From Candidatus Bathyarchaeia archaeon (GTDB lineage Archaea; Thermoproteota; Bathyarchaeia; Bathyarchaeales; Bathycorpusculaceae): a DNA stretch of 64,000 bases. Positions 2,342 through 54,002 of the stretch are shown here, in pieces. The stretch spans positions 110,819 through 174,818 of the forward strand of contig JBEKTQ010000007.1 of NCBI GenBank assembly GCA_049515895.1. The letters run 5' to 3'. The notes beneath the pieces are model-generated. The model worked only from the letters and a program-made list of their open reading frames with translations. It searched no databases and was not told where the DNA came from. Within the stretch, counting starts at the first letter, position 1. Every line of letters begins with the position of its first letter. The position numbers and the translations under genes were made by a program.

Positions 2342-2425
2342 ATGTCAAATAACGTGTTGAAAAAAGAAAACGTTGCCTCATGGTTCCAGAGCTTCGACTA
2401 CTTTTATTATAGTTATTTTCCTTAA
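2342..2425 (+). CDS. putative aromatic amino acid leader peptide MSNNVLKKENVASWFQSFDYFYYSYFP
   Basis: 27-aa ORF; 9 of the last 14 codons are Trp/Phe/Tyr; directly upstream of aro operon. Confidence 0.8.
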   Translation: MSNNVLKKENVASWFQSFDYFYYSYFP

Positions 2426-2463
2426 GCCCAGAACTGGAAATTTTTTTTAGTAAAGTTCTGGGC
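2426..2463 (+). promoter_or_regulatory. putative attenuator hairpin with U8 tract in loop
   Basis: GCCCAGAACT (2426-2435) / AGTTCTGGGC (2454-2463) perfect inverted repeat starting at the base after the leader stop; T8 at 2441-2448. Confidence 0.7.
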
Positions 2464-2481: not shown

Positions 2482-3729
2482 ATGGAAAAAACTGGTCCAA
2501 ACAGAACAATTGTCGTTAAATTTGGTGGTTCTAGCCTAGCGGATCACGAGAGGCTTTTAAAAGCGGTGGTTGCCGTGGTTGATGAAGCCAAGAAGGGCAC
2601 ACGGGTCGCTGTCGTGGTATCGGCTATGGGTAAAACGACAGACGTTCTTATGACGACTGCGAAGAACGCTTCCAACGGGAAGCTGGAGAAGAAAGACCTT
2701 GACGACATCCTGTCGATGGGTGAGCGGACCAGCATCAGAATCTTCTCCACAGCGCTTAGAACCAATGGAGCAGAGTCCTGCTACTTTGACCCGATCGACA
2801 GCAACTGGCCAATAATAACTGATTCAGCCTTCCAAAACGCTAACCCGATCCTCAAGGACTGCGAAAGAAACATCCGAGAATGTGTTCTGCCACTAGTGGA
2901 AAAAGGCACTATTCCCGTCGTGGCAGGTTTCTTGGGCAAAACCAAGGACGGGAAAATCACAACTCTGGGCAGAGGTGGAAGCGACACAACCGCGTTTGTC
3001 CTAGCCGAAGCGCTTGGAGCGGACGAAATTATCTTGGTGACTGACGCAGACGGCATAATGTCAGCAGACCCAAAAATGCTCTCCAACGTCGAGCGCCTCA
3101 AAGAAATCGACGTAAACACGCTGGTGGGACTCGCCGATTCTGGAGCTAAATTCATTCACAGCAAAGCACTAAAGTACAAACCCAAAAACATTAACGTCCG
3201 CGTCATCAACCATTCCCGCGGCAGCCTGTCGGAAGAAGGCACCTTAATCACAGGTGGATTGGCCACGGAACTTGACGCTGAAATCGCGCATCCTTTCCCA
3301 GTTGCCGAAATCACCGTGATAGGAAACGGCATCTCGGCTAACCCGCAAATCATTCAGGAAATGGTTGAGGAAGCCAAGAGGCACTCGCGTCTCTTGGGCA
3401 TGTCAATGAACACAAACTCCGTAATCATTTATGTTTCAGAAGAGAAGAACTTGGAAGGGCTCTTCAACGACGTCCACAACATAACAAAGAGCAACAAGGA
3501 AACCATCGCAATGGCCGTCAAAAAAGACCTTGTTTTCATAAAAACAAGCGGCGTCGGCTTAGAAGAGACCCACGGGATCATCGGAAAGATCAGCGAAGAC
3601 CTGCGGCTCAGCGGCATAAACATTTCAGGCATACTAACAATAACATCAAGCATTCTTCTCTTTCTCGATTGGAACGAACGGGAAAAAGCCCTCAAACTAA
3701 TTAAAAACTCTTTAAGGAGCGCTAAGTAA
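2482..3729 (+). CDS. ask: aspartate kinase (aro-operon isozyme)
   Basis: KFGGSS, VVSAMG, LGRGGSDTTA motifs; C-terminal ACT-like region. Confidence 0.9.
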   Translation: MEKTGPNRTIVVKFGGSSLADHERLLKAVVAVVDEAKKGTRVAVVVSAMGKTTDVLMTTAKNASNGKLEKKDLDDILSMGERTSIRIFSTALRTNGAESCYFDPIDSNWPIITDSAFQNANPILKDCERNIRECVLPLVEKGTIPVVAGFLGKTKDGKITTLGRGGSDTTAFVLAEALGADEIILVTDADGIMSADPKMLSNVERLKEIDVNTLVGLADSGAKFIHSKALKYKPKNINVRVINHSRGSLSEEGTLITGGLATELDAEIAHPFPVAEITVIGNGISANPQIIQEMVEEAKRHSRLLGMSMNTNSVIIYVSEEKNLEGLFNDVHNITKSNKETIAMAVKKDLVFIKTSGVGLEETHGIIGKISEDLRLSGINISGILTITSSILLFLDWNEREKALKLIKNSLRSAK

Positions 3730-3738
3730 GGTGAAAAT

Positions 3739-4530
3739 ATGAACCAAGGAAAAACCCGAAGACTAAAAAGAATAATGCAGCAAGACAACCGCACAGTAAT
3801 TGTTCCCATGGACCACGGCGTAACAGTCGGACCCATCCAGGGCTTAACCAACATGCAACAAATAATCGACCAGCTTGTCAAAGGCGGGGTTGATGCCGTG
3901 CTTGTCCACAAAGGCATCGCTAAACACACTGACGCTGGAAATGTAGGATTAATCGTAATGCTGTCTGGTATGTCAAACCTCAGCCCAAACGTAAACGGCA
4001 AAGTCCAAGTCTGCAGCGTCAAAGAAGCTATACGTTTAGGGGCAGATGCGGTTTCAGTACATGTTAACATCGGCGCGCAAGACGAGGATAAAATGATTCA
4101 AAATCTTGGTAGCGTAGCTGACGAATGTGACGTTTACGGGATGCCATTGCTTGCGATGATGTATCCACGGGGACCCAAAATACAGAATGAACATGCAGCC
4201 GACGTGGTTGCTCACGCCGCACGCATAGGTGCTGAACTTGGTGCGGACATTATCAAAGCAAACTTCACAGGAAACATAGAAACCTTCAAAACCGTAGTAG
4301 AAAGCTGCCCCGTTCCGCTGGTGATCGCAGGAGGACCAAAATGCAAAACCTCCGAGGAAGTTCTGCAAACCACACGCGACGCCATTTCAGCCGGAGCAGC
4401 AGGGCTTTCCATCGGGCGCAACGTTTTCCAGCACGAAAATCCAACATTAATTGTTAAAGCGCTTTCAGCTATCGTTCATGGCAACGTAAGCGTGGAAGAA
4501 GCGCTGAAAATCGTCGGTGAAAAAGCTTGA
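3739..4530 (+). CDS. 2-amino-3,7-dideoxy-D-threo-hept-6-ulosonate synthase (class I aldolase, aroA')
   Basis: PMDHG, MMYPRG, ELGADIIK, AGG, GRNVFQ motifs; first gene before DHQ synthase II. Confidence 0.9.
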   Translation: MNQGKTRRLKRIMQQDNRTVIVPMDHGVTVGPIQGLTNMQQIIDQLVKGGVDAVLVHKGIAKHTDAGNVGLIVMLSGMSNLSPNVNGKVQVCSVKEAIRLGADAVSVHVNIGAQDEDKMIQNLGSVADECDVYGMPLLAMMYPRGPKIQNEHAADVVAHAARIGAELGADIIKANFTGNIETFKTVVESCPVPLVIAGGPKCKTSEEVLQTTRDAISAGAAGLSIGRNVFQHENPTLIVKALSAIVHGNVSVEEALKIVGEKA

Positions 4531-5570
4531 AGGAACTGTGGGTAGAAATTGAACCTGCGGCTTCACCGCAAGAAAAAGAAAACTTGCTTGGCACCGCATA
4601 TGAAAATGCAGATGTGGTCCTAGAAGGTACCCAAGCGAGCACCCGTAACGGCAAACTTGACGTGACATTTCTCGCCGAGCTTTCCGAGAAGAAGATTTCC
4701 CAAGCCAAAAATGAAGGCAGAAAAACCGCGGCCAAATTCAACATAACTGGGAAAGAAGACGAAAACCGCGCTGCTAAAGCGGCTGAACTGGGGGTTGATT
4801 ATATAATCATCAACACGTTGGACTGGAGGGTCATTCCTCTGGAGAACTTAATTGCGAAGGCGCATGGAGGCAAAAGCAAGCTTATCGCTGAAGTTGCGAC
4901 GGCACAGGACGCCAAAGTGGTTCTTGAGGCGTTGGAGCTGGGAACAGACGGTGTTCTGCTTAAAACTTCAAACCCAAATGAGCTTGCCAAAACTGTGAAG
5001 CTCGTCAAAGGGCAAATGCCTAAGGTAGCGTTGACAATAGCTAAGGTTCTGTCTATACAGCCCATCGGTACAGGAGCAAGGGTTTGCGTTGACACTGTTG
5101 ATTTGATGGTTCCAGGCGAAGGAATGCTTGTCGGCTGCCAATCTGCAGGGTTCTTTTTGGTCGAGGCTGAGGTGAACGAGAACCCATATGTGCAATCTCG
5201 ACCTTTCCGAGTAAACGCTGGACCAGCATCACACTACACTTTAACGTCGCTTCAGAGTACTCGGTACCTCTCCGAACTGAAGGCTGGAGACGAAGTCTTA
5301 ATCATAAACAGGGAAGGAAAAGTAAGAATAACGAACGTAGGAAGATCAAAAATCGAGTTCCGACCGCTCATCTTAATTGAGGCGCAAGCGGACGAAACAA
5401 AAATCAAAGCAATACTGCAAAACGCAGAAACCATCCGTCTCGTCACGCCAAAAGCCTCCAAACCCGTGACGGAACTCAAAGTAAGCGACGAGGTCTTGGT
5501 GCATTTGGCTGCAAAAGGGGGCAGGCACTTCGGCGTTTCCGTGCCTGAAGAAACGGTGATTGAAAGGTGA
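4527..5570 (+). CDS. 3-dehydroquinate synthase II (aroB')
   Basis: DWRVIPLENLIA, RVCVDT, RPFRVNAG, QNAETIRL motifs. Confidence 0.92.
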   Translation: MKELWVEIEPAASPQEKENLLGTAYENADVVLEGTQASTRNGKLDVTFLAELSEKKISQAKNEGRKTAAKFNITGKEDENRAAKAAELGVDYIIINTLDWRVIPLENLIAKAHGGKSKLIAEVATAQDAKVVLEALELGTDGVLLKTSNPNELAKTVKLVKGQMPKVALTIAKVLSIQPIGTGARVCVDTVDLMVPGEGMLVGCQSAGFFLVEAEVNENPYVQSRPFRVNAGPASHYTLTSLQSTRYLSELKAGDEVLIINREGKVRITNVGRSKIEFRPLILIEAQADETKIKAILQNAETIRLVTPKASKPVTELKVSDEVLVHLAAKGGRHFGVSVPEETVIER

Positions 5571-6250
5571 CTTTGAGAATCTGCGTTTCAATCCTACCAG
5601 AAAATAGTCTTCAAGCCCTAACGCTCATCAGGAAGGCGGAAAAAGCCAAAGCAGACCTCATCGAAGTCAGGTTGGATCGTCTTGAAACGACCACACACTT
5701 GAGGGAACTTGTCCAGAGCACAAAAATCCCCCTAATAGCAACGCACAAACTGACGAGCGAAAAAGGTTTTTTCTCCGGGACAGAGGCCCAAAGGCAACAG
5801 AGCCTTCTGAACGCAGCCGAAAGTGGTTTCGAATACGTTGACGTTGACGTGTCAAGCCCAAACCGCCAAGAAACAATCGATAAACTCAAACAGTTGGGAG
5901 TTAAACCAATCGTTTCCCACCACAAATTCGATGGCACATTAAGCCGTTCCGCTATGGAGAAGGTTCTGGAGCAGGAAATCTTGTGCGGCGCCTGCATATG
6001 CAAAATCGTTGCAACCGCCAAGAAAATCGAGGATAACCTGACGGTACTCAATTTTGTCGCTTCCCATTCAAGTAAGGCTAAACTTGTCTGTTTCTGCATG
6101 GGCGAAGTAGGTAAAGTTTCAAGGATTCTTTCACCGATGTTCGGCGCCTTCTTCACTTTTGCTTCGCTTGAACAGGGCAGCGAAACCGCGAAAGGGCAAA
6201 TCTCCATAGGCGAAATGAAGGCTGCTTTCGACCTCCTAGGAGCGCCTTAA
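5567..6250 (+). CDS. aroD: type I 3-dehydroquinate dehydratase
   Basis: EVRLD, SHH, KIVAT, FCMG..G..SR motifs; operon context. Confidence 0.9.
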   Translation: MTLRICVSILPENSLQALTLIRKAEKAKADLIEVRLDRLETTTHLRELVQSTKIPLIATHKLTSEKGFFSGTEAQRQQSLLNAAESGFEYVDVDVSSPNRQETIDKLKQLGVKPIVSHHKFDGTLSRSAMEKVLEQEILCGACICKIVATAKKIEDNLTVLNFVASHSSKAKLVCFCMGEVGKVSRILSPMFGAFFTFASLEQGSETAKGQISIGEMKAAFDLLGAP

Positions 6251-6251
6251 G

Positions 6252-7118
6252 ATGGCGGTTTCAGGAAAAACTAAAGTTTTCGGAGTAATCGGCGACCCTG
6301 TAGAGCACAGTCTAAGCCCGGTCATTCAGAACGCGGCGCTTGCAGCCTCGAAATTAGACTGCACATTCTTAGCCTTTAAAGTAAAATCCACAGCGGTCGG
6401 GAAAGCAATGGACGGTATGCGAGCGTTTGGCATTCAAGGGCTTAACGTTACAATGCCCCATAAAACCGCGGTTCTCAACTTTCTTGACGAAGTTCACCAG
6501 ACCGCCAGGGCGCTAAAGGCAGTTAACACGGTAAAGAACGAGAGCGACAAACTCTTAGGCTTCAACACTGACGGCACCGGTGCAATGTCTGCTTTGAGAG
6601 AAAACGGCGTTGAGCCAAAAGGCAAAAAAGTAATGTTGCTTGGAGCAGGTGGTGCTGCAAGAGCTATAGCCTTCGTTCTCGCGGATCAGGTGGATGAGCT
6701 TTCAATTTTGAATCGGACAATTCAGCCAGCCGCGGAGTTAGCAGATTTAATAAAGGAAAGGTTCAACAGCAAAGTTGTTGCGTACGCTCTTTCCCCGTTA
6801 ACGCTTAAGGCAAATCTAGCTGATGCTGACCTGCTGATTAACGCCACTTCAATCGGAATGAAATCGAACGCCAATAAAACCCTGATAGTCCCAAAATGGC
6901 TCAAGCCTGACTTGGCTGTGATGGACATAGTGTATGACCCGATAGAGACTAAACTAGCGAAAAATGCGAGGGCTGCGGGCGCCAAAGTGGTCAGTGGGGT
7001 TGAAATGCTGATTTATCAGGGCGCTGCGTCGTTTGAAATCTGGACTGGCAGGAAGGCGCCAATTGAAGTTATGAGGAAAGCAGCGCTTAATCACTTGCAG
7101 AAGGTGCAGAAGAGTTGA
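6252..7118 (+). CDS. aroE: shikimate dehydrogenase
   Basis: HSLSP, NVTMPHK, NTDG, GAGGAARA, NATSIGM. Confidence 0.95.
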   Translation: MAVSGKTKVFGVIGDPVEHSLSPVIQNAALAASKLDCTFLAFKVKSTAVGKAMDGMRAFGIQGLNVTMPHKTAVLNFLDEVHQTARALKAVNTVKNESDKLLGFNTDGTGAMSALRENGVEPKGKKVMLLGAGGAARAIAFVLADQVDELSILNRTIQPAAELADLIKERFNSKVVAYALSPLTLKANLADADLLINATSIGMKSNANKTLIVPKWLKPDLAVMDIVYDPIETKLAKNARAAGAKVVSGVEMLIYQGAASFEIWTGRKAPIEVMRKAALNHLQKVQKS

Positions 7119-7984
7119 CGGGGCAAGCTTCAGCTGTAGCACATGGCGCGGCGACGATTGTTAATGCAATGGCGCTCGGCAAAGGCGCCGCTTTCGGAGT
7201 TGACTTGTTCACGAAAGCGAAAGTGGAATTGACTGAAGAGCCAACAGTTGTCAAGGCAGAGATAGCTTCTGACCCGAAAGAAAGCAACGTTCTGGTGAAG
7301 AAAACCGTTGAGCGGGTTCTCCAGCGTTTCAAGATGGAAAAGAGATTCGGCGCTAAAGTTAAAACTTGGTCAAACATCCCCATCGCCAAAGGGCTCAAAA
7401 GTAGCAGTGCAGCAGCAAACGCGGTCGCCCTGGCAACCACGGCGGCGCTGGGGAAAACGCTGGATGACTTGGAAATTATCAACTTAGGTGTAGACTCCGC
7501 TTTCGACGCGAAAGTGACGGTTACTGGCGCTTTTGACGATGCATGCGCATCATATTTAGGCGGGATAATTGTCACTGATAACTTAGAACGGAAAATCGTG
7601 GGGCGGTTGGCGCTACCCGAAGATCTAGTTGTGCTTTTTCTTGTTCCTCCCCAAAAAGCTTATTCTGCTGACTCAAACGTTGAAAGGCTGAGAACTGTGA
7701 AGCCGCTTGTTCAAGTTGCTTACGAGAAGGTTTTAGGGGGTAGGTTCTGGGAGGCTTTGACGCTTAATGGTTTAATTTACTCCTCTGTCTCTGGGTATGA
7801 TCCCTCGATCGCGATTGACGCGTTGGCGGCTGGAGCAGTGGCGGCTGGGCTTTGCGGTAAAGGACCGGCAGTTACGGCAGTCACAACTAAAGACAAGGTT
7901 GATTCGGTGAAGGCTGCATTTCAAAAATTCGACGGCATAGTCTTGCAAGCCCGCTTCAACAAGGAAAAGGCAACGGTGATTTAG
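7115..7984 (+). CDS. aroK: archaeal shikimate kinase (GHMP family)
   Basis: GAATIVNA, GLKSSSAA, TGAFDDA motifs. Confidence 0.92.
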   Translation: MTGQASAVAHGAATIVNAMALGKGAAFGVDLFTKAKVELTEEPTVVKAEIASDPKESNVLVKKTVERVLQRFKMEKRFGAKVKTWSNIPIAKGLKSSSAAANAVALATTAALGKTLDDLEIINLGVDSAFDAKVTVTGAFDDACASYLGGIIVTDNLERKIVGRLALPEDLVVLFLVPPQKAYSADSNVERLRTVKPLVQVAYEKVLGGRFWEALTLNGLIYSSVSGYDPSIAIDALAAGAVAAGLCGKGPAVTAVTTKDKVDSVKAAFQKFDGIVLQARFNKEKATVI

Positions 7985-7986
7985 CA

Positions 7987-9291
7987 ATGGCGGATGTAAT
8001 CGTTAAAAAGTCTGAAAAATTAAGCGGCGAAGTATGCGCTCCCCCTTCAAAATCTTACACTCAGCGAATGCTCATCGCAGCGTCTCTCTCAAACGGGACT
8101 GGAAAAGTTTCAAATCCGCTTCTTTCCGAAGATACAGAAGCCACTTTGCGCGCGATAACCGCATTAGGTGCAGAAACGAGTTTTGAGGAAAACTGCTGGG
8201 TCATTAAAGGCGCTGTGCCTATTCAAAACGCGAAAGCACCAATTGATTGCGGAGAATCCGGAGCTACAATACGTTTCATGATACCTGTGGCTGCCCTGGC
8301 AAGTGACCCCTCAATCCTGATCTTCCGTGGGTCTCTTGACCGCAGACCCATCGAACCTTTGATTAAAAGCCTAGACGACTTGGGCGCAAAGGTTCACTCG
8401 AAAAAATTCGGCGACAAAGACGCCGTGGTTGTTGAAGGCGGGGGAATTCTTGGAGGACAAACCTCTATTTCAGGTGGTGTAAGTTCGCAGTTTATTTCGG
8501 GGTTGCTTTTTGCGTGCCCGATGGCTAAGGTTGAAACTGAAATAGTCTTCGAATCCCCATTGGAGTCCGCTGACTATGTTAAGATGACTTTGGATGTGCT
8601 TTCGAAGCATGGAATCAGAGTGGACGTTTATGGCAATTTCGAACGCATCTTAATCCCAGCCAACCAAACCTTCAAAACCATTGACTGCCGGGTGCCTGGC
8701 GACTTTTCTTCAGCCGCATTTCTTTTTGCAGCCGCAGCTGTCACCAAGTCGAAAGTGCAGGTAAACGATCTTGATTACGGGAGCGTTCAAGGCGACAAAG
8801 CAATTCTGAGCATCCTAAAACAGATGGGTGTAGCCGGCAAAGTGTGTGAAAACAGCGTTGAAATAGACGGCACGGGTAGCTCGCTTGAGCCATTAAATCT
8901 TGATGCAAAAAACATCCCTGACCTTGTCCCGGTATGCGCAGCTTTGGCATGCTTCGCAAATGGGACCTCGAAAATAACAGGCGCGCAAAGGCTCAGGCTC
9001 AAGGAATCAGATAGGCTGCAATCCCTCTATAGTGAGTTCACAAAGATGGGGGCAGAAATTGAAGTAGATTCGAACAGTCTAACCGTGAGGGGCACCTCTG
9101 CTTTGCACGGCGCCACAATTGACCCTCATAACGACCATCGTATAGCGATGGCTTGCGCGATTGCAGCTCTATGCGCGGAAAACCAAACTATTATTCAAAA
9201 TGCCCAGTGTGTCAGAAAGTCTTATCCACAGTTCTTCACTCATCTGAAACAGTTAGGAGCGGAAATTGTTGGCGGGAAATTCGACGGGTAA
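7987..9291 (+). CDS. aroA: EPSP synthase
   Basis: PPSKSY, GESGAT, SSQFISG, KESDR, DHRIAM, KSYP. Confidence 0.95.
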   Translation: MADVIVKKSEKLSGEVCAPPSKSYTQRMLIAASLSNGTGKVSNPLLSEDTEATLRAITALGAETSFEENCWVIKGAVPIQNAKAPIDCGESGATIRFMIPVAALASDPSILIFRGSLDRRPIEPLIKSLDDLGAKVHSKKFGDKDAVVVEGGGILGGQTSISGGVSSQFISGLLFACPMAKVETEIVFESPLESADYVKMTLDVLSKHGIRVDVYGNFERILIPANQTFKTIDCRVPGDFSSAAFLFAAAAVTKSKVQVNDLDYGSVQGDKAILSILKQMGVAGKVCENSVEIDGTGSSLEPLNLDAKNIPDLVPVCAALACFANGTSKITGAQRLRLKESDRLQSLYSEFTKMGAEIEVDSNSLTVRGTSALHGATIDPHNDHRIAMACAIAALCAENQTIIQNAQCVRKSYPQFFTHLKQLGAEIVGGKFDG

Positions 9292-10384
9292 AGAATTCAC
9301 AGTTACCACTTTCGGCGAAAGCCACGGCAAAGTCGTCGGCGTCATAGTGGACGGTTGCCCTGCAGGTTTGCCTCTTTCTGAAGCAGACATTCAAGCGGAG
9401 CTGGACAGACGCGTACCAGCAGATACCCGAATCGTTTCTGCAAGAATCGAAAGAGACGTGCCCAAAATTCTTTCGGGCGTTTTCAACTCGGTTACCACTG
9501 GCGCTCCAATAGCCGTGACGGTTGAGAACAAGGATGTTGACTCCGCGGATTATGAGGCAATTAAAAATCTGCCAAGACCTGGGCATGCAGACTACCCCGC
9601 AAGCGTTAGGTACGGCGGCTTTAACGATTACCGCGGAGGCGGACGCTTCAGCGGTAGAGTCACTGTGGCGTTAATAATGGCCGGAGCCATAGCGAAAAAA
9701 CTTCTGAGCCGTTTCGACGGGGACGTTTTAGCCTACACAAGAACCATAGGCAAAATCAGAAGCGACAAGAAGTTTAGCACTGAAGAAATCCGAAAGAACC
9801 GCTACGTGGCCTCTTCTAGATGCCCCGATTTGGCATGCGCAGGAAGAATGGAGGAAGCCATTGTTGACGCGCGAAAAGAGGGCGAAAGCCTCGGCGGCGT
9901 AGTTGAATGCCTTGCTCTGAACATACCAGTGGGGGTTGGGGACCCAATGTTTGATTCGCTCGACGCCGAGTTAGCCAAGGCACTGTTTAACGTTCCTGCA
10001 GTCAAGGCAGTTGAATTCGGATTGGGCTTCGAACTCATCAAGATGAAAGGCTCAGAAAGCAATGACGCCTACGTCATGCAAAACGGGAAAGTTGCTACTT
10101 CAACCGATAACATGGGCGGAATCTTAGGCGGCATATCCAACGGCATGCCAATCATCATGCGGGTAGCAATTAAACCGACGCCTTCCATCGGCCTAGAGCA
10201 GAAAACCGTTAACCTGACCACTATGGAAGATGCATCTCTCACAGTTAAGGGCAGACATGATCCATGTGTCGTTCCTAAAGCCGTGCCAGCCGTAGAAGCC
10301 GCAGTAGCCATAACGCTAGCTGACCACATGATTCGTTCTGGCTTCATACCGAAAGTCTTGGAGAGGAAAAAAATTGTTGGATGA
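9266..10384 (+). CDS. aroC: chorismate synthase
   Basis: TFGESHG, PRPGHAD, GGGRFSGR, KPTPSI, GRHDPC. Confidence 0.95.
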   Translation: MLAGNSTGKEFTVTTFGESHGKVVGVIVDGCPAGLPLSEADIQAELDRRVPADTRIVSARIERDVPKILSGVFNSVTTGAPIAVTVENKDVDSADYEAIKNLPRPGHADYPASVRYGGFNDYRGGGRFSGRVTVALIMAGAIAKKLLSRFDGDVLAYTRTIGKIRSDKKFSTEEIRKNRYVASSRCPDLACAGRMEEAIVDARKEGESLGGVVECLALNIPVGVGDPMFDSLDAELAKALFNVPAVKAVEFGLGFELIKMKGSESNDAYVMQNGKVATSTDNMGGILGGISNGMPIIMRVAIKPTPSIGLEQKTVNLTTMEDASLTVKGRHDPCVVPKAVPAVEAAVAITLADHMIRSGFIPKVLERKKIVG

Positions 10385-10637
10385 ACTCGAACTGTACAGA
10401 AAACAGGTTGATCAAATTGACGATTTGATTTTGAAAGCGCTAACTGAAAGAGTCAAGATATGCATGGCCATCGGTTTAGTAAAGAAAAAACGGGGCATCC
10501 CAATAAAAGACCTCTCCAGAGAAAACGACGTTTACAGAAAAGTAAAAGACAATTCTGCCGAATTCGGCTTAGATTCACAGAAGCTTGAGGCAATCTACCG
10601 CGAAATAGTTAATATGTGCAGTGCAGTTCAAGAGTAA
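10374..10637 (+). CDS. chorismate mutase (AroQ type)
   Basis: LELYRKQVDQIDDLILKALTERVKI...K...RE AroQ pattern. Confidence 0.88.
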   Translation: MLDELELYRKQVDQIDDLILKALTERVKICMAIGLVKKKRGIPIKDLSRENDVYRKVKDNSAEFGLDSQKLEAIYREIVNMCSAVQE

Positions 10638-10666
10638 GAAATAATCTAAAAGGAAAGTTCAAGGTA

Positions 10667-11746
10667 ATGCTCTACGAAATAAACGAGAAAGCCATAAGAC
10701 TCGAAAATCAAGGAAAGAAAATAATCCGCTTAAACCTAGGTGACCCTGACTTGGCTACGCCACCAGAAATTGTTGAGGCTGCGTACGCCGCGATGAAGGC
10801 TGGTAAAACAAAGTATTCTTCTGCTTACGGCGAGGAAAAACTAAGGCAGAAACTCGCTAAAATTCACGGAGTCAAAGCAGAAAATGTTGTTATTACTCCG
10901 GGTTCAAAATGGGGCGTCTTCGCCACTTTGTACCTGGCTATGAAGGCTAGAGGTAACATCATCATACCCACGCCTTACTGGACAGCTTACGATTTAATGG
11001 CTAAAAGTCTCGGTGCCCAAACAAGACTGCTCCGGACCGAAATGGAAGACGGCTGGAAAGTTGATTTGGGCAAGCTCGAAACTATGATTGACAAAGACAC
11101 TCGGATGATAATACTCAACAACCCGAATAATCCGACAAGCAAAGTGATGGATTCCGAGACTTTAGACGGTATAGTGGAAATAGCCAACAAGAAAGGCGTA
11201 ACCATACTCTCTGACGAAGTTTACGGTCCAATCAGTTTCATAAAGACAAAAAGCATCCTTGAATACGACGGCAACCACAATCACATTCTTTCAAACGGGT
11301 TCTCAAAAATGTTCACCATGACGGGCTGGCGAATCGGCTATATCATCGCGAATAAGGCGCTCGTGGACAACATAACAAAGCTAAACCAAATTACCATAAA
11401 CAACGTCCCAGTCTTCATACAAGAAGCAGCTCTAAAAGGGCTTGAAATGCAAAAGAACCTGACAAAAACCATTGAAAAAGAATATGAAGAAAGGGCAAAG
11501 ATAGCAAGCAAAACTTTGGCGAAAGCCGGCTTTTCCTTCACCGAACCCGAAGCACCATTCTACGTGTTCCCAAAGCTTAAAGGCTTAGACTCAGAAAAAT
11601 TCACCCTAGACCTGCTTGACAAAGGCGTTGCAGTGGCTCCCGGAACATCCTTCGGTGACTACAGAGAGCACTTCCGCATCTCTTTGACAGCTCCCCGAGA
11701 CGAAATAAAAATAGGGTTGGATAAAATCAGCGAGGCGCTCAAATGA
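10667..11746 (+). CDS. PLP-dependent class I/II aminotransferase (probable aromatic/prephenate aminotransferase)
   Basis: GDPD, NNPNNPT, SDEVY, SKMFTMTGWRIG; start set at ATG 10667. Confidence 0.85.
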   Translation: MLYEINEKAIRLENQGKKIIRLNLGDPDLATPPEIVEAAYAAMKAGKTKYSSAYGEEKLRQKLAKIHGVKAENVVITPGSKWGVFATLYLAMKARGNIIIPTPYWTAYDLMAKSLGAQTRLLRTEMEDGWKVDLGKLETMIDKDTRMIILNNPNNPTSKVMDSETLDGIVEIANKKGVTILSDEVYGPISFIKTKSILEYDGNHNHILSNGFSKMFTMTGWRIGYIIANKALVDNITKLNQITINNVPVFIQEAALKGLEMQKNLTKTIEKEYEERAKIASKTLAKAGFSFTEPEAPFYVFPKLKGLDSEKFTLDLLDKGVAVAPGTSFGDYREHFRISLTAPRDEIKIGLDKISEALK

Positions 11747-12618
11747 AAACCGCGGTTCTTGGCGCGGGAAAAATGGGTGTTTGGTTCGCAAAGTTTTGTA
11801 AGGAGAAAGGGGACAGCGTAATCCTCTCAGACAGGAAAGAGGAAAAGCTGTCAAAACTCGGAAAAGAGTTAGGTGTCGAAACTACCACTGACTTCTCGAA
11901 AGCGGTTGAAGACGCAGACAGAATCATGATTTGCGTTTCACTAAGCAGCTTCGAAGAAGTGGTAAAAAAAATCGGCTCCAGCGTTCGCGACGGGCAAGCG
12001 GTTATGGATATCTGCTCAATCAAGGAGTACCCAGTTAAGGTTATGCATGATTATATCAAGCACGGCTTGGTGTTGGGTACTCACCCCGTTTTTGGCCCAG
12101 GCAGCAAAGGCGTAAAACACAAAGCCTACGTTCTCACCCCCACAAATGCCAAGGAGGAGAAGTATGCCGAAGACTTCAAAGAGTGGCTGGAGAGTGAAGA
12201 AGCCCACGTTTTCGTAATGACACCCCAGAAACACGACCAACTCATGTCCGTCGTCCTAGGACTACCGCATTTCCTCGGATTAGTCGCTTGCGAAACCCTT
12301 CTTGATCAAAAGGCATTCACTGAAACTAAGCAATTGGCGGGGACGACTTACCGCATGCTTTTCACTTTGGCGGAAGCAACCGCGCTGGAAACTCCTGACC
12401 TTTACGCTAATTTGCAGATGAAGCTGCCTGGAATGGGAAAAATCGAAGACCTCTATATCTCCAAGGCTCAGGAATGGCTGGATTTGATCAAGCAGAAGAA
12501 TCCTCAGGCAATCATCGACAGGATGGAGCAACTTAAAGCTAAACTGCTGAAGGTTGATCCCGACTTCTCAGAATCATATGAAGTCATGTACAGAATGCTT
12601 GAAGCCACGGAGAAGTAA
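11743..12618 (+). CDS. tyrA: prephenate dehydrogenase
   Basis: GAGKMG, DICSIK, THPVFGP, HDQLMS. Confidence 0.92.
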   Translation: MKTAVLGAGKMGVWFAKFCKEKGDSVILSDRKEEKLSKLGKELGVETTTDFSKAVEDADRIMICVSLSSFEEVVKKIGSSVRDGQAVMDICSIKEYPVKVMHDYIKHGLVLGTHPVFGPGSKGVKHKAYVLTPTNAKEEKYAEDFKEWLESEEAHVFVMTPQKHDQLMSVVLGLPHFLGLVACETLLDQKAFTETKQLAGTTYRMLFTLAEATALETPDLYANLQMKLPGMGKIEDLYISKAQEWLDLIKQKNPQAIIDRMEQLKAKLLKVDPDFSESYEVMYRMLEATEK

Positions 12619-12627
12619 CGAAAACAG

Positions 12628-13248
12628 ATGCCCAAATCATTAGTCGTGAATTGTTCTCTAAAATCAAAAAACGAAGCTTTAGTTGAAGCCATCAGAGAAT
12701 TCAGCGACTGCGACGTTCTCCAGTTCAGTGATATCCATGAGGGCTACCGCGTCAAAGAGGAAGTTGATGCCGTCGTCATAAGCGGTTCTGCAGCTAGAAT
12801 AGTTAACTCTTCCGACAGACGTCTCTTTGAAGGAGTTGTCAATCTGATAAGAACCTGCGACTTGCCCACGTTGGGTATCTGCTTTGGGCATCAATTGCTC
12901 TGTTGGGCGTTCGGGGCAAAAGTTGGATCACTTGCTCAACCTGTTCTGGATCGTTTTGAGTCGGTTCGGGTGGTCGACGTCGACGGAATATTCTCTGGGT
13001 TTAGCGAAAACCTGATGGTGCCGCTGTCAGAAAACCATTACGATTACGTCCTAAAAGAAAACTTGTGCGAGGCGGGCTTTCTTTTGCTCGCGGATTCCGT
13101 CTCATGCGAAGTAGAAGCCGTTAGGCATAAAAGCAAGCCACTTTACGGCGTTCAATTTCATCCCGAACGTATAAAAGTAAAGGGCGAAACGCATTCTGGG
13201 GGTCACAAAGTTATAAAGAACTTTTACCAAAACGCGATTAGGCGATAG
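12628..13248 (+). CDS. class I glutamine amidotransferase
   Basis: LGICFGHQ nucleophile and QFHPE triad. Confidence 0.85.
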   Translation: MPKSLVVNCSLKSKNEALVEAIREFSDCDVLQFSDIHEGYRVKEEVDAVVISGSAARIVNSSDRRLFEGVVNLIRTCDLPTLGICFGHQLLCWAFGAKVGSLAQPVLDRFESVRVVDVDGIFSGFSENLMVPLSENHYDYVLKENLCEAGFLLLADSVSCEVEAVRHKSKPLYGVQFHPERIKVKGETHSGGHKVIKNFYQNAIRR

Positions 13249-13340: not shown

Positions 13341-13709
13341 GTGGTTTCTGTGGAATTTAAGAAGGCTCCGGCTGAACTTGTTGAATTCATCAGAGAAAAA
13401 ATGAAGGACGTGAACTGCGACTATCGCCAAATGTTTGGGTACCCCGCATACTTCATTAACGGCAACATGTTCGCGGGACTTTTTGGCGACAAATTGCTTT
13501 TGAGGCTTTCAGACGTTGACTTCGCGGAAACCCTGAAAATCCACGGGGAAGTTAAGGTTTTTGAGCCCCTGCCGGGAAGGGCGATGAAAGGCTATGTTGC
13601 TCTCCCAAAATCAGTTTATTCAGATGACACTGAGTTCGAGAAGCTGCTTAACAAATCTGTAAAATACGTCTCTTCGTTGCCCCAAAAAATATCGAAAGCC
13701 AAAAAGTAA
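13341..13709 (+). CDS. TfoX/Sxy N-terminal domain protein
   Basis: RQMFGYPAYFINGNMFAG...LLLRL...MKGYV pattern. Confidence 0.75.
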   Translation: MVSVEFKKAPAELVEFIREKMKDVNCDYRQMFGYPAYFINGNMFAGLFGDKLLLRLSDVDFAETLKIHGEVKVFEPLPGRAMKGYVALPKSVYSDDTEFEKLLNKSVKYVSSLPQKISKAKK

Positions 13710-13712
13710 GTG

Positions 13713-14525
13713 TCAATTCGCTTTTGAGTATGAACCTAAGACTTTGACAAAATCAACGTACTTCTTGAGAGCCTTCAAGGCTTCCGAACATTGTTTCTCA
13801 CATCGGTGCCCCTCGAAATCCAAGTAGAAGTTGTATTCCCAAGGCGTTTGCTTGGTAGGTCTTGACTCGATTTTTGTTAGGTTTATGCCTCTTTTGGCAA
13901 ATTCACCCAGCGCGTTGTAAAGCGACCCTGGCTTGTGGGCTGCTGAGAAGATTATGCTTGTTTTGTCTTTGCCCGTTGGTGCTGAATCGCTGGTGGATAG
14001 AACAAAGAACCGTGTGTAGTTTTCGGAGTTGTCAGCAATATCTTCAGCGAGAATGTGCATGCCATAGAGGTCGGCTGCTCTTTTGCTGGCGATTGCGGCG
14101 GCGTTTATCAAACCTTTTTCTTTGATCATTTTGACGCTGCCTGCCGTGTCATAGGTCGGTATTAGTTCGCGACCGAATTCCTCCAGGAAACTTCTGCATT
14201 GCCCAAGCGCCTGCGGATGCGAATAGACAACTTTGATGTTTTCTAATGCTGCGCCGGGGTTCGCGACTAAGCAATGCTCGATTTTCACCACGACTTCCCC
14301 GCAAACTTTCAAGTCATAGCGCAGAAACAGGTCGTAGTTCTGAGGTACACTGCCTTCTAAACTATTTTCGACGGGTACGATGCCGTGCTGGGTTTCTTGA
14401 GTGCATACGCTGTCGAAAACGTCTTTGAAGTCGCGGCAAGGTTTAACCTGTGTTTCTGCTCCGAAGAACTGGTAGACTGCGCTTTCGCTGTAGGCGCCTC
14501 GTTCGCCTTGAAATGCTACTTTCAC
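13713..14525 (-). CDS. pheA: prephenate dehydratase
   Basis: AFQGERGAYSE, PVENSLEG, SHPQALGQC, NYTRF, LTKIESRP. Confidence 0.95.
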   Translation of the reverse strand: MKVAFQGERGAYSESAVYQFFGAETQVKPCRDFKDVFDSVCTQETQHGIVPVENSLEGSVPQNYDLFLRYDLKVCGEVVVKIEHCLVANPGAALENIKVVYSHPQALGQCRSFLEEFGRELIPTYDTAGSVKMIKEKGLINAAAIASKRAADLYGMHILAEDIADNSENYTRFFVLSTSDSAPTGKDKTSIIFSAAHKPGSLYNALGEFAKRGINLTKIESRPTKQTPWEYNFYLDFEGHRCEKQCSEALKALKKYVDFVKVLGSYSKAN

Positions 14526-18948: not shown

Positions 18949-19461
18949 TTATTCGTCTATTCTTACTGATTTTGTTCCTCTTGCTAGCGCTGTTATGCCT
19001 GTTCTGGCAAGTTCAATGACGCCTGTTGCCTTCATCAAGTTTAGGAAGGCGTCAAGCTTGTCAGGTGTTCCGGTGATTTCCACGGTTAGGCTGTCAGTTG
19101 AAACGTCAATTATTCGTCCTCGGAAGACTTCTACACAGTTAATGATGTCGGAGCGATCTTTCGCAGTTGGAGAGTTAACCTTTATCAAAGCTAGCTCGCG
19201 CATTACATAGTTTCCAGGCTCCAGTTCCTCGACTTTAAGCACATCGACGAGTTTTGCGACTTGTTTGACGACTTGGACGATTGTTTTTTCATCCTCATTA
19301 ACTGTTATGGTCATACGCGCGATGTCTTTCCTCTCGCTCGGGCCGACAGTGATGCTTTCAATGTTAAAGTTTCTGCGTCGGAACAAGTTTGAAACTCCGA
19401 AGAGCACACCTGGCTTGTTTTCGACAAGTACCGAAATTATTTTTGTTCTTCCAGCTTCCAT
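18949..19461 (-). CDS. ilvN: acetolactate synthase small (regulatory) subunit
   Basis: SVLVENKPGVL, RRNFNIESITV, RELALIK, ARTG. Confidence 0.93.
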   Translation of the reverse strand: MEAGRTKIISVLVENKPGVLFGVSNLFRRRNFNIESITVGPSERKDIARMTITVNEDEKTIVQVVKQVAKLVDVLKVEELEPGNYVMRELALIKVNSPTAKDRSDIINCVEVFRGRIIDVSTDSLTVEITGTPDKLDAFLNLMKATGVIELARTGITALARGTKSVRIDE

Positions 19462-21167
19462 TAGTAATCACCTTTCTGTTGGGGTAAACCGCAGCCTGGA
19501 GGCACAAAGGGCACAACGTCCTGCTCCGAGCCTATAGGCACATCGATCACCGTGGTAACATTACTGTTCAATGCTGTCTTAACAGCTTTGTGGAATTCCT
19601 CGATTGATGTTGCCCGCAGTCCTTGCGCTCCGTAAGCTTCCGCCAGCTTAACGAAGTCTGGTGTTCTGCCTAGGTTAACCGCCATGTAGCGTCGTTTGTA
19701 GAGCATTCTTTGCCACTGGGCAACCATTCCTAGTACCGAATTGTTCAGCACTATGACAGTAACCGGAATCTTTTCGGTAACGGAGCAGGCGAGTTCTTGC
19801 TCGCTCATTATGAAGCTGCCGTCGCCCGCTATGTCTACGACTGGTCTGTCTGGGCAAGCGACTTTTGCGCCGATTGCCGCTGGGAAGCCGAAACCCATCG
19901 TTCCTAAGCCTCCTGAACTGATGAACGATCTCGGCTTCAAAGCTTGGAAGTAAAGCGCCGACCACATTTGGTTTTGCCCAACTTCCGTAGTGACTATCGC
20001 GCTTTCAGGAAGAAGGTTCCTTAACTCAGTCAACAATGCCTTCGGCACTATGTCTCTTGGTCTCTCTTTCATCAGTGGACTCAGCTGTTCTTTTGCTTCT
20101 TTAACTCGCTTTGCCCAAGCGTTGCCTTCACCTTTACGCAGTTTTTCGCTTAATGCGGCAAGCAAAAGATTCAGGGCAGCTTTTGCGTCGCCGACTATGG
20201 GTACATCAACCTCAATGTTCTTGCCGATTTCTGCCTCGTCAATGTCTATATGGATTTTTTTAGCTTCATGCGCAAAAGAGTCCAAATTTGCTGTTGCACG
20301 GTCGGAGAATCTTGTTCCGACAGCTAGCAGAACGTCAGCTTCGCACATGAGCCTGTTCGCCGCTGGGTTTCCATGCATTCCTATGCTACCTACCGACAGA
20401 GGGTGACATTCCGGGAACGAGCCTTTACCCATGAATGTTGTAGCGACTGGTGTCATCAGCAGGTCAGACATCCGCATGATTTCGTCTGAAGCGTTCGAGA
20501 TTATGACTCCGCCGCCTGCAAGGATGATCGGACGCTCCGCTTTCGCAAGCAAACTGGCGGCTTCGCTAATCTTGCATAAGTCTATCTCAATCATTGACTT
20601 GTAACCAAAGGCTTCGATCTTGTCAGTTACCTCCACTTCGCCAGTGTCTGACTGCACGTTTTTTGGCAAGTCAATCAGAACCGGTCCCGGTCTACCCGTA
20701 GACGCTATGTAGAACGCCGTGTTAACGATAGTTGGAATCTCTGCAACAGTTCTTGGCTGGAAATTGTACTTAGTGATTGGGGTTGTGATTCCGATTATGT
20801 CGGCTTCTTGGAACGCGTCTCTGCCGATTAAGTATGAAGTGTTTACGCCTGAAGAGGGAACCTGCCCTGTCAATGCTACTATGGGAGAAGAATCCATGTA
20901 TGCGTTCGCTATCCCGGTAACCAAGTTTGTAGCTCCGGGCCCTGAGGTTGCCATGCAAACTCCTACTCGTCCGCTGGCTCTGGCATAGCCTTCGGCTTCA
21001 TGCGCCGCGCATTGTTCGTGCCTGGCAAGGATGTGCCTAATTTTTGCGTTGCCGCACAAAGCGTCATACACAGGAAGGATTGCTCCGCCTAAGATGCCGA
21101 AGATCACGTTCACGTTTTGGCGTTCAAGAGATTCTAGGAGTGCTTTTGCACCAGACATTTTAGTCAT
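19461..21167 (-). CDS. ilvB: acetolactate synthase large subunit
   Basis: RHEQ, TSGPGATN, GTMGFG, GDGSF..N TPP motif. Confidence 0.95.
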   Translation of the reverse strand: MTKMSGAKALLESLERQNVNVIFGILGGAILPVYDALCGNAKIRHILARHEQCAAHEAEGYARASGRVGVCMATSGPGATNLVTGIANAYMDSSPIVALTGQVPSSGVNTSYLIGRDAFQEADIIGITTPITKYNFQPRTVAEIPTIVNTAFYIASTGRPGPVLIDLPKNVQSDTGEVEVTDKIEAFGYKSMIEIDLCKISEAASLLAKAERPIILAGGGVIISNASDEIMRMSDLLMTPVATTFMGKGSFPECHPLSVGSIGMHGNPAANRLMCEADVLLAVGTRFSDRATANLDSFAHEAKKIHIDIDEAEIGKNIEVDVPIVGDAKAALNLLLAALSEKLRKGEGNAWAKRVKEAKEQLSPLMKERPRDIVPKALLTELRNLLPESAIVTTEVGQNQMWSALYFQALKPRSFISSGGLGTMGFGFPAAIGAKVACPDRPVVDIAGDGSFIMSEQELACSVTEKIPVTVIVLNNSVLGMVAQWQRMLYKRRYMAVNLGRTPDFVKLAEAYGAQGLRATSIEEFHKAVKTALNSNVTTVIDVPIGSEQDVVPFVPPGCGLPQQKGDY

Positions 21168-21264
21168 TTTTCATCGTTTTCTCCTTTCAACAAATATTCT
21201 CTCGTCTTGGGAAGAAATGATTGCAAAATTAGATTCAGTTTTTTCAGAGAGGTTCCTGGGAGAA

Positions 21265-21315
21265 TCAAAGAATAAGTACCCGACGATCCCAGCTATTGAG
21301 GTGACGATCCCTCAT
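21265..21315 (-). CDS. putative branched-chain amino acid leader peptide MRDRHLNSWDRRVLIL
   Basis: 16-aa ORF ending GTA CTT ATT CTT TGA (V-L-I-L-stop) 97 nt upstream of ilvB; GAGG upstream of ATG. Confidence 0.7.
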   Translation of the reverse strand: MRDRHLNSWDRRVLIL

Positions 21316-21359
21316 TTTCGTGCCTCTTAAATACCACGTACCTTAAAGGTATCATCCAA

Positions 21360-52592: not shown

Positions 52593-54002
52593 CTAAATTT
52601 TGTCCAGGTTGAATGCTTCGTGAATGGCTCGGACAACTTCTTTCCCGTCTTTTTCTTTTACCACAAAAGAAATGTTCAGCTCCGACGAGCCCTGTGCAAT
52701 CATTCGGATGTTTATGCCTTTTCTTGCGACTGTTGTGAATATTTTTGAGGCTACGCCCAAAGTGCCCTTCATATTGGCGCCAACAACAGCTATTACTGCC
52801 ACGTCGTCTTCCGAAGAAATGTCGCTTACTAAGCCACCCCTATCAAGCAAGGCGATTTCAAGGCTGCTTATCGCCCTGCCTAAAACTCCTCGTCGAATAA
52901 CCATTGAAATGTTGGCTTCTGAGGCAGCGGTAGATATCATCATAACGTTAATGTTGTTTTTTCCGAGCACATCGAAAACTTTCGCGTAGCTTCCAGGTGC
53001 ACCAACCATTCCTGCGCCGCTGACGTTTAACATTGCAACTTCCCTTATCATTGCTACCGCTTTAACGACTTGTTTTGCGTTCGCATCAGGCTCTTCCGTA
53101 ATCAATGTGCCTTGGTTTTCCGGATGAAAAACACTGCGTATCCTCACTGGGACGTTTTCTTTTATGACAGGCTCTAGAGCTCTTGGATGCATGGCTTTTG
53201 CGCCAAAAATCGCCATTTCCGCAGCTTCTTGATAGCTTAATTGCGGTAGCATTTTGGCGGCTGGAACTATTTTGGGGTCGGTGGTCATAATGCCGTCTAC
53301 GTCAGTCCATATCCAGACTTCGTCAGCGCCTAATGCAACGCCTAAAATTGTTGCAGTGTAATCTGATCCACCCCGTCCAACTGTTGTCACTACTCCGTTT
53401 TGGTCCGCGGCAATGTAACCTGTAACAACTGGGACGACGCCTTTTTCAAGCAGTGGACTCAGCCTTTCTCGGATCAGGTGAGTGGTAAAGTTCATAAGTG
53501 GGTCTGCTTCCCCGAAGTTTGAGTCTGTTACGATACCTGCTTCTTTGCCTGTGAAACATTGAGTCTCCAGCTTGCGGTCTTTTATGGCTCCCCAAACAAT
53601 TGGTGCTGAAAGCCGCTCGCCGAACGATAGTACATAATCTTTTGACTTAGGCGTAAGCTCGCCAACATAGCATATGCCCGTTAACACCTTCTCGAGTTCA
53701 GCGATAGTTTTCTCTGTGATTTGAGTTACTTCTTTTTGAATCGCCTCGCTACTAATGGCCGATTTGATTGCCATCAAATGCTTCTCCGAAAGTTCCGTTG
53801 TGAAGGCTTGAATTTGTTTTTCATTGCTTCTCTTCGCTTGCTCTGCGACTTCAATCAGGCCGTTAGTTACTCCTGCTAAAGCTGATACAACAACGGCGAT
53901 TCTGCAGTTGTTCTTGGCGTTTTGCTTTATTATAGAACTTACATGGCGTATATTTTCGCCCGTTGCTACGCTGCTACCGCCGAACTTCATGACTACTTTC
54001 AT
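52593..54002 (-). CDS. ask: aspartate kinase (thr-operon isozyme)
   Basis: KFGGSS, SFGERLS, GRGGSDYTA, WTDVDG, two ACT domains (GSSELNIS). Confidence 0.93.
   Translation of the reverse strand: MKVVMKFGGSSVATGENIRHVSSIIKQNAKNNCRIAVVVSALAGVTNGLIEVAEQAKRSNEKQIQAFTTELSEKHLMAIKSAISSEAIQKEVTQITEKTIAELEKVLTGICYVGELTPKSKDYVLSFGERLSAPIVWGAIKDRKLETQCFTGKEAGIVTDSNFGEADPLMNFTTHLIRERLSPLLEKGVVPVVTGYIAADQNGVVTTVGRGGSDYTATILGVALGADEVWIWTDVDGIMTTDPKIVPAAKMLPQLSYQEAAEMAIFGAKAMHPRALEPVIKENVPVRIRSVFHPENQGTLITEEPDANAKQVVKAVAMIREVAMLNVSGAGMVGAPGSYAKVFDVLGKNNINVMMISTAASEANISMVIRRGVLGRAISSLEIALLDRGGLVSDISSEDDVAVIAVVGANMKGTLGVASKIFTTVARKGINIRMIAQGSSELNISFVVKEKDGKEVVRAIHEAFNLDKI

Follow-up and report, generated by a model that had tools for sequence, protein, structure and literature searches.

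A candidate Phe/Tyr-sensing leader peptide in front of the ask-aro-tyrA operon of an uncultured Bathyarchaeia archaeon

Introduction

Can an archaeon adjust the synthesis of aromatic amino acids by means of ribosomes that read a short leader peptide? This question is raised by the region in front of the aspartokinase gene ask (2482-3729, + strand, 415 aa) in a genome of Candidatus Bathyarchaeia archaeon. The window, i.e. the whole stretch of DNA that was analysed, is 64,000 nucleotides long (GenBank assembly GCA_049515895.1, contig JBEKTQ010000007.1, positions 110,819 to 174,818 of the forward strand), and coordinates are counted from its first letter. According to Pfam scans, ask opens an operon of overlapping or tightly spaced open reading frames (ORFs) (2482-12618, +) in the order ask, DeoC-type ADH synthase (aroA'), DHQ synthase II (aroB'), aroD, aroE, GHMP-type aroK, aroA, aroC, chorismate mutase (CM_2), an aminotransferase and prephenate dehydrogenase (tyrA). 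A preliminary description of this DNA had proposed that an attenuator, formed by a leader peptide rich in aromatic codons and a hairpin with an oligo-U tract in its loop, precedes the operon. Comparison with related genomes supports an ORF that looks translated and is rich in Phe and Tyr codons, two predicted helices locked to these codons and to the stop codon, and a terminator-type signal inside the leader. The leader is very probably an attenuator-type sensor of the supply of charged Phe- and Tyr-tRNA for the ask-aro-tyrA operon, and the reading as a whole, with sensor, helices and output taken together, is likely the best explanation of the locus. The output itself is more tentatively assigned, and may be premature termination through U-tracts and aCPSF1 that is blocked by a parked ribosome plus the hairpin.

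As of 2021, no example of transcription attenuation or antitermination was known in archaea (PMC8448881), and full-text literature searches found no published archaeal leader-peptide attenuator. If the model is true, it would place regulated attenuation or antitermination in Archaea, with a sensor half conserved throughout an entire class of uncultured archaea that abound in sediments and soils. The system has clear parts that can be mutated, namely the start codon, the aromatic codons, the two helices and the U-tracts. It makes several questions testable: whether transcription-translation coupling serves as gene-specific control in archaea, how ribosomes and RNA structure modulate FttA-dependent termination, and whether leader-peptide attenuation is ancient or arose independently in archaea. 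For annotation pipelines, it would also mean a missing small gene and a missing regulatory RNA upstream of archaeal aro operons.

The leader peptide and its conservation

The leader ORF (2342-2425, +) runs from an ATG at 2342 to a TAA at 2423-2425 and encodes, in 27 codons, the predicted peptide MSNNVLKKENVASWFQSFDYFYYSYFP. Nine of the 14 C-terminal residues are Trp, Phe or Tyr, and the extent and composition given for this ORF in the preliminary description proved correct. The aromatic codon run (2381-2419, +) comprises W14, F15, F18, Y20, F21, Y22, Y23, Y25 and F26. By comparison, aromatic residues make up 9.1% of the proteome, as judged from the long ORFs of the genome, and at least nine aromatic residues in the last 14 are found in only two of the 25,100 ATG-started small ORFs of the genome (ORFs of at least 14 codons). 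The Tyr and Phe codons of the leader far outnumber those for Trp, which agrees with an operon whose last three genes encode chorismate mutase, an aminotransferase and TyrA. This is a short 5' ORF enriched in codons for the end products of the pathway encoded behind it, as is characteristic of a leader peptide. Codon choice in the leader tails is biased as well: UUU makes up 88% of Phe codons (46.5% in the genome) and UAU 63% of Tyr codons (37% in the genome). This bias creates two U4 tracts within the aromatic run (2402-2405 and 2416-2419), which are conserved as U4-U5 in leaders.

The second small ORF with nine aromatic residues in its last 14, MSRKTIYFPHSVLFFVFLPYYSSYFYWY (contig C25:24733-24860), contains a 22-nt direct repeat and is followed by a T7 with a weaker flanking stem. 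The next gene encodes a membrane or secreted protein and has its own TATA-like box, so this aromatic-rich ORF is probably due to chance. When 35,844 small ORFs were screened for an excess of any one amino acid, no other convincing leader emerged in the genome.

Two sets of loci, all from metagenome-assembled genomes, were used for comparison. The first contains 27 orthologous loci, including that of the window, and draws on 24 further genomes of the same genus and on three genomes from other families of the order. The second contains 29 named Bathyarchaeia loci, with at least two duplicate genomes of the first set, and brings the total to about 50 genomes. A leader ORF with 6-10 aromatic residues in its last 14 is present at the same place in 27/27 orthologous loci, and an aromatic-rich leader ORF in 29/29 named Bathyarchaeia loci. 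The aromatic codons which the preliminary description expected upstream of related ask/aroA' operons are therefore present in both sets, and homologous leaders that lack an open frame or aromatic codons, one of the observations that would have refuted its proposal, were not seen among the orthologous loci. The frame remains open even though roughly the first 13 codons diverge freely, and lengths differ by whole codons, mostly within 23-29 aa. Across families, only the aromatic composition is kept and not the peptide sequence. There are several (at least six) unrelated designs, for example SFDYYFYYYHFP, PFFGSFGYFGY, YSFGYFFYN, PFFGSFGYFGYRG, YFEFYFSGYWYMFNY and MMFYRYRFFFYR, and in a deeper clade the design is GYIFGGHIYGGHYW. 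No such leader was found at paralogous ask genes (about 40% identity), at one Asgard locus or at one Thermococcus locus.

The TATA-like box that had been noticed upstream of the leader is part of a conserved promoter directly in front of it, with a B recognition element (BRE)-like CGAAA (2288-2292, +) and a TATA box, TTATATTT, at 2296-2303. The sequence CCGAAA(C/T)GCTTATATTTT is invariant across all loci of the genus, and in all families the TATA lies 43-48 nt from the leader ATG. Going by the spacing usual in archaea between TATA box and transcription start, the start site is predicted at about 2326, 12-16 nt before the leader ATG. At the other end, the Shine-Dalgarno (SD) sequence of ask, GGGUG (GGGTG in the DNA; 2471-2475, +), lies 6 nt ahead of the ask ATG and is kept as GGGTG, GGGGG or GGATG in all loci.

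An open frame, conservation of composition only and a fixed promoter are together the hallmark of a leader whose codons matter and whose product does not. The ORF is conserved and intact everywhere, as would also be expected of a functional aromatic-rich micropeptide whose codon content has no role in sensing. Such a peptide is nevertheless the least probable of the explanations considered here: only composition is conserved across families and the N-terminal half is free to change, the ORF is strictly tied to the aromatic operon and missing from the paralogous ask genes, and its nucleotides are constrained by RNA helices.

Helices locked to the codons and to the stop codon

The more prominent of these helices is the hairpin P2 (2426-2463, +). 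Its arms, GCCCAGAACT (2426-2435) and AGTTCTGGGC (2454-2463), form a perfect stem of 10 bp around an 18-nt loop, the 5' arm begins on the first base past the leader stop codon, and the loop carries U8 (T8 in the DNA) at 2441-2448. An inverted-repeat search recovered this stem next to the stop codon, with T8 in its loop, just as it had first been described, and the local fold has a predicted energy of -19.5 kcal/mol. Including P2, the window contains only three inverted repeats with separated arms of at least 10 nt that lie within 40 nt, and the P2 motif has no second copy in the genome (3.18 Mb). Of the 60-nt intervals that precede genes in the genome, 0.75% contain a run of T8 or more. Between P2 and the ask SD lie 7 nt. 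P2 is retained across 41 loci, and its changes are mostly compatible with wobble pairing on the + strand. The other families have, in its place, hairpins of unrelated sequence with 9 to 24 pairs, which start 0-6 nt from the leader stop codon and end 0-9 nt before the ask SD where that SD could be located. At locus L036 both P2 arms carry an insertion that keeps the pairing, as judged by eye on the sequences.

The second helix, P1, and the further complementarity described below were absent from the preliminary description. The 5' strand of P1 (region 1; 2329-2338, +) reads G-UCGAAGCU and takes up nearly the whole short 5' untranslated region (5'UTR), and its 3' strand (region 2; 2390-2398, +), AGCUUCGAC, consists of the Ser-Phe-Asp codons that open the aromatic run. 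The pairing part of region 1, UCGAAGCU at 2331-2338, would pair with AGCUUCGA at 2390-2397. In an unguided RNAalifold run on an alignment of 39 distinct leaders, P1 and P2 were both predicted independently; together they are also the minimum-free-energy fold of the leader, and 94% of the P1/P2 helix cells are paired. The Ser-Phe-Asp nucleotides are invariant, even though synonymous changes would be possible. In a tally of the pair tables made for this work, about 10 of the 12 distinct types of one-sided substitution keep the pairing by G.U, and on the + strand only. The tolerated changes are A-to-G opposite U or C-to-U opposite G, neither of which would preserve pairing on the opposite strand or symmetry in a DNA palindrome.

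The direction of these substitutions bears on the proposal that the palindromes are DNA operators, or that the A/T-rich loop is a second ask promoter, with an ORF that is incidental or of weak relevance. P2 is indeed a perfect DNA palindrome around a centre of A5-7/T5-8, P1 holds the palindrome TTCGAA twice, and the arms are nearly invariant, as protein sites would be. Known archaeal regulators of aromatic metabolism, such as TrpY and Tar, are proteins. However, almost all arm substitutions keep G.U on the + RNA and would break DNA symmetry, and the other families keep a hairpin at this position with unrelated sequence. In addition, the ORF and its aromatic composition are maintained across the genomes compared while the N-terminal codons diverge, and the conserved ask SD implies that the transcript starts upstream of about 2465. 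DNA operators or a second promoter are thus very improbable as an account of the locus.

Region 1 may have another partner: the stop codon together with the 5' arm of P2 forms a second sequence to which it is complementary (a 1:3 pairing). In 93% of cells this pairing could form, with energies between -7 and -13 kcal/mol. The four segments of the leader can be described as two look-alike pairs. In two families, f5 and f7, the 5'UTR matches the 5' arm by quite different sequences, as judged by eye. The 1:3 pairing showed no independent covariation. A different switch had been suggested at first, in which TTCCAG in the leader pairs with CTGGAA across the 5' arm. The position of CTGGAA (2434-2439) was correct and that of TTCCAG is 2384-2389, not 2383-2388. 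The pairing is present in only about six sequences, those that read W-F-Q-S-F-D, and elsewhere TTCCAG is replaced by unrelated sequence; this candidate switch was dropped.

Oligo-T as a termination signal

The possible function of U8 depends on whether oligo-T ends transcripts in this genome, as the preliminary description assumed. Sense-strand runs of T6 or longer occur at 0.28/kb in coding sequences (CDS), at 1.10/kb on the antisense strand and at 3.6/kb in the 60 nt after convergent genes; they are fourfold depleted in coding relative to antisense strands, and 13-fold enriched after convergent genes relative to the sense strand of CDS. For T8 or longer, the corresponding values are 0.009/kb, 0.038/kb and 0.5/kb. 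Depletion within CDS together with enrichment after genes is the usual archaeal sign that oligo-T ends transcripts, and the strand and position statistics thus make oligo-T a credible terminator signal here. An ortholog of aCPSF1/FttA is encoded in the genome. The KH domains of aCPSF1 bind U-tracts, more strongly with longer or more tracts, and archaeal terminators lack hairpins (PMC8716108). The T8 of the leader is a sense U-tract of at least five in a genome that uses such runs, which is how an archaeal oligo-U terminator is recognized.

The surroundings of this T8 are exceptional. Ordinary terminator T-runs of the genome have no flanking stems. The arms that enclose the leader T8 have a predicted energy of -19.8 kcal/mol, a value attained by none of 178 such runs, and this T8 is the top case, by flanking stem, among the intergenic T-runs of the genome that precede a gene. 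A T-run within a hairpin loop was accordingly rejected as a general type of terminator. In the main family, a loop T-run of T4-T8 is found in 33/41 loci, at a fixed 15-17 nt past the stop codon. As an observation in its own right, the genome shows a clean hairpin-free terminator signature for an uncultured member of the Bathyarchaeia.

Proposed mechanism and its alternatives

In the favoured model, the transcript would begin about 15 nt ahead of the leader ATG, and a ribosome translating the 27-codon ORF would slow down or park on the Phe/Tyr run in the last 14 codons when the corresponding tRNAs are poorly charged. The termination signal would be made up of the two U4 tracts, which belong to the UUU/UAU sensor codons, and the U8 of the P2 loop, and termination would be assisted by the U-tract-binding factor aCPSF1/FttA. 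When Phe and Tyr are ample, the ribosome would reach the stop codon, unzip the 5' arm of P2 and be released; the U-tracts would then be single-stranded behind RNA polymerase, and transcription would end. When Phe and Tyr are scarce, the parked ribosome would cover the two U4 tracts and P2 would close around U8, leaving the factor without an entry site, and the polymerase would read into ask. P1 would close the 5' end after passage of the ribosome, limiting each transcript to one round of sensing and protecting the 5' end. Possibly, then, the hairpin is an antiterminator, the reverse of its role in bacteria, and the sensor codons are themselves part of the aCPSF1/FttA signal; this part of the model is put forward with some reserve. 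The logic of a hairpin that shields a U-tract would have the right regulatory sign.

Several observations weigh against this model. An intrinsic stop at the loop U8 would precede the 3' arm of P2, so P2 could only modulate factor-dependent termination, and to our knowledge such modulation by a hairpin has never been demonstrated. The aromatic codons extend to 1-2 codons before the stop, and a ribosome parked there would itself open P2. The U-tracts are not universal: the U4 tracts of the leader tail are missing in some distant designs, the loop T-run falls to T3 or none in the Bathycorpusculum-like branch, four loci (L026, L027, L048 and L057) have no T-run, and three others (L054, L058 and L025) have U4-U5 after the hairpin and not in its loop. 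No other amino-acid operon in the genome has a clear leader peptide. Finally, of the covarying stem pairs that the preliminary description hoped to find in relatives, little was seen: the hairpin is kept there with wobble-compatible changes, but double-sided, classical covariation is almost absent, and shuffle controls are not significant in the GCCCAG family. The covariation statistics fail to reach significance because the arms are almost invariant in sequence. The support for the helices in the main family, which is informative, comes from wobble-only changes and from the independent hairpin designs, not from formal covariation.

Some of the same observations fit a second scheme, in which the sensor is unchanged and P2 is a negative element. 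P1 and P2 would form in ribosome-free or replete RNA, and P2 would switch the operon off, either by causing the polymerase to pause or terminate or, from its place just ahead of the SD, by impeding the binding of the 30S subunit. Relief would come from a ribosome on the last aromatic codons that melts the 5' arm, or from one that covers region 2 and leads to the 1:3 pairing. The minimum-free-energy fold is what this scheme predicts for free RNA, and the aromatic codons always abut the stop codon, with the 5' arm always 0-6 nt from it. The hairpin followed by U4-U5 at L054, L058 and L025 is canonical terminator geometry, and at L050 the ask SD is located inside the 3' arm of the hairpin. The recurrence of the 1:3 complementarity, with different sequences in f5 and f7, would be explained too, and the near-invariance of all four segments fits multiple pairing partners. 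On the other hand, the window has no U-run after P2, the translation initiation region (TIR) of ask is not sequestered, the 1:3 pairing is much weaker than P2 and lacks covariation of its own, and P2 would stay intact if the ribosome stalled early in the run. Moreover, hairpins are not a feature of the terminators of this genome, nor of those of model archaea (PMC8716108). A negative role for P2 is the strongest of the alternatives, but is considered unlikely on this evidence.

A purely translational mechanism, of the ermC/cat or mycobacterial Cys-small ORF (sORF) type, would dispense with termination altogether. The U-rich last codons of the leader would pair with the SD and AUG of ask, the pairing would be clamped by P2, and a parked ribosome would free the ask ribosome-binding site. 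Over 41 loci, the ask SD is indeed predicted to pair mainly with the last four leader codons and the stop codon (mean fraction of the pairing mass, 0.42), and placing a ribosome at codon -3 increases the mean accessibility of SD and AUG from 0.37 to 0.55, a weak trend in relatives. At L050, the region around the ask AUG is a perfect complement of the Tyr-Tyr-stop codons, and the hairpin lies close to the SD (0-9 nt) in the designs with a locatable SD. In the window, however, the duplex between the leader end and the TIR ranks at the 20th percentile of 965 gene starts, and the accessibility of the ask TIR at the 80th percentile of 400 genes. The pairing beyond CC:GG shows no covariation (by eye on the alignment), and U-rich codons will pair with any purine-rich start region. 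Sequestration of the ask SD and start codon was dropped for the window, where the TIR is accessible and the duplex unremarkable, and a purely translational mechanism appears improbable.

Comparison with known leaders

The favoured model, a leader that senses Phe- and Tyr-tRNA and acts on termination, has its closest counterparts in E. coli pheL-pheA (Rfam Phe_leader), trpL and hisL. Shared with these are a short ORF at the 5' extremity of a biosynthetic operon, cognate codons near the end of the ORF, conservation of codon composition only, helices interlocked with the codons and the stop codon, and a U-run in the leader. The pheL peptide, too, ends in F-P-stop. The differences concern the host, which is an archaeon with a BRE/TATA promoter and an RNA polymerase that does not use hairpin terminators; the output, in that there is no terminator of a hairpin plus a U-run and U8 is inside the hairpin loop; and the upstream partner helix, which uses the 5'UTR and not a segment downstream of the codons. 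Within 2100-2600 no terminator-like site was found, and no U-run follows P2 in the window. No Rfam family reached its gathering threshold anywhere in the window, which gave only chance-level matches at E up to 10. The likeness to the bacterial trpL/pheL layout that was claimed at the outset is thus borne out for the leader codons and for the conservation of composition; it does not extend to a hairpin followed by a U-run, nor to a match in Rfam. By analogy, the leader looks like one that works as bacterial pheL and trpL do, lacks their terminator, and belongs to a domain in which transcription is terminated by other machinery.

E. coli tnaC, with Rho, offers another parallel. In both cases, a ribosome near the end of the leader would deny a factor its RNA entry site beside the stop codon, and the site would be exposed once the ribosome is released and leaves. 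The present leader would differ in that tRNA charging is read through codon composition, and not free Trp through an arrest peptide, and in that the proposed factor is the nuclease aCPSF1/FttA acting on U-tracts and not Rho acting on a C-rich rut site. With the oligo-U aCPSF1/FttA terminators of Methanococcus and Thermococcus (PMC8716108, PMC11616081), the leader shares a sense T8 plus U4 tracts, the T-run pattern of the genome and a genome-encoded factor. It differs from them in that the run lies in a 5' leader and not at a gene end, and in that it is enclosed by a 10-bp stem, as in none of the 178 other runs. The leaders of ermC and cat and the mycobacterial polycysteine sORFs (bioRxiv 10.1101/834739) resemble it as codon-rich upstream sORFs whose occupancy changes operon expression, and differ in that the ask ribosome-binding site is not sequestered in the window.

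Neighbouring genes and other amino-acid operons

Downstream of tyrA, the operon is trailed by a class-I glutamine amidotransferase gene (12628-13248, +, 206 aa). After a gap of 93 nt follows an ORF with a TfoX_N domain (13341-13709, +, 122 aa), which may be a separate unit. The gene for prephenate dehydratase, pheA, with an ACT domain (13713-14525, -), is convergent to the aro operon and hence outside the control of the leader, although Phe codons are as abundant in the leader as Tyr codons. The genome contains two more genes of the aspartokinase family, one in the window (52677-53666, -) and one at contig C10:42479-43636, with 32% and 39% identity to the aro-linked ask; the aro operon therefore has a dedicated isozyme of its own.

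Ahead of the trp operon (trpE onward; contig C8:68395-68640) are a TATA-like box and an ORF of 15 codons, MRNYIWRSRHTNQTS, only one of which encodes Trp. The conserved N-terminus of TrpE (...LKEQPLEIFSRLQKKYRTAYLLES) is encoded in a different frame, which is open but has no preceding ATG, GTG or TTG; this points to an unusual start, a frameshift or an error of assembly.

Upstream of ilvB (19461-21167, -), the stretch 21168-21330 on the same strand holds a 16-codon ORF, MRDRHLNSWDRRVLIL. The last residues of this ORF vary (VLIL, VLVL, VQLL, VQLF, VHFY, VLFC, VPRN and VFIL), which weighs against a clean Val/Leu/Ile sensor and makes a structured RNA, or a leader of another kind, the more plausible reading. 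At the nucleotide level the stretch is conserved (AUGAGGGAUCGUCACCUCAAUAGCUGGGAUCGUCGGGUAC, with GGGAUCGUC occurring twice) in 16 genomes of the genus, and partly in other families.

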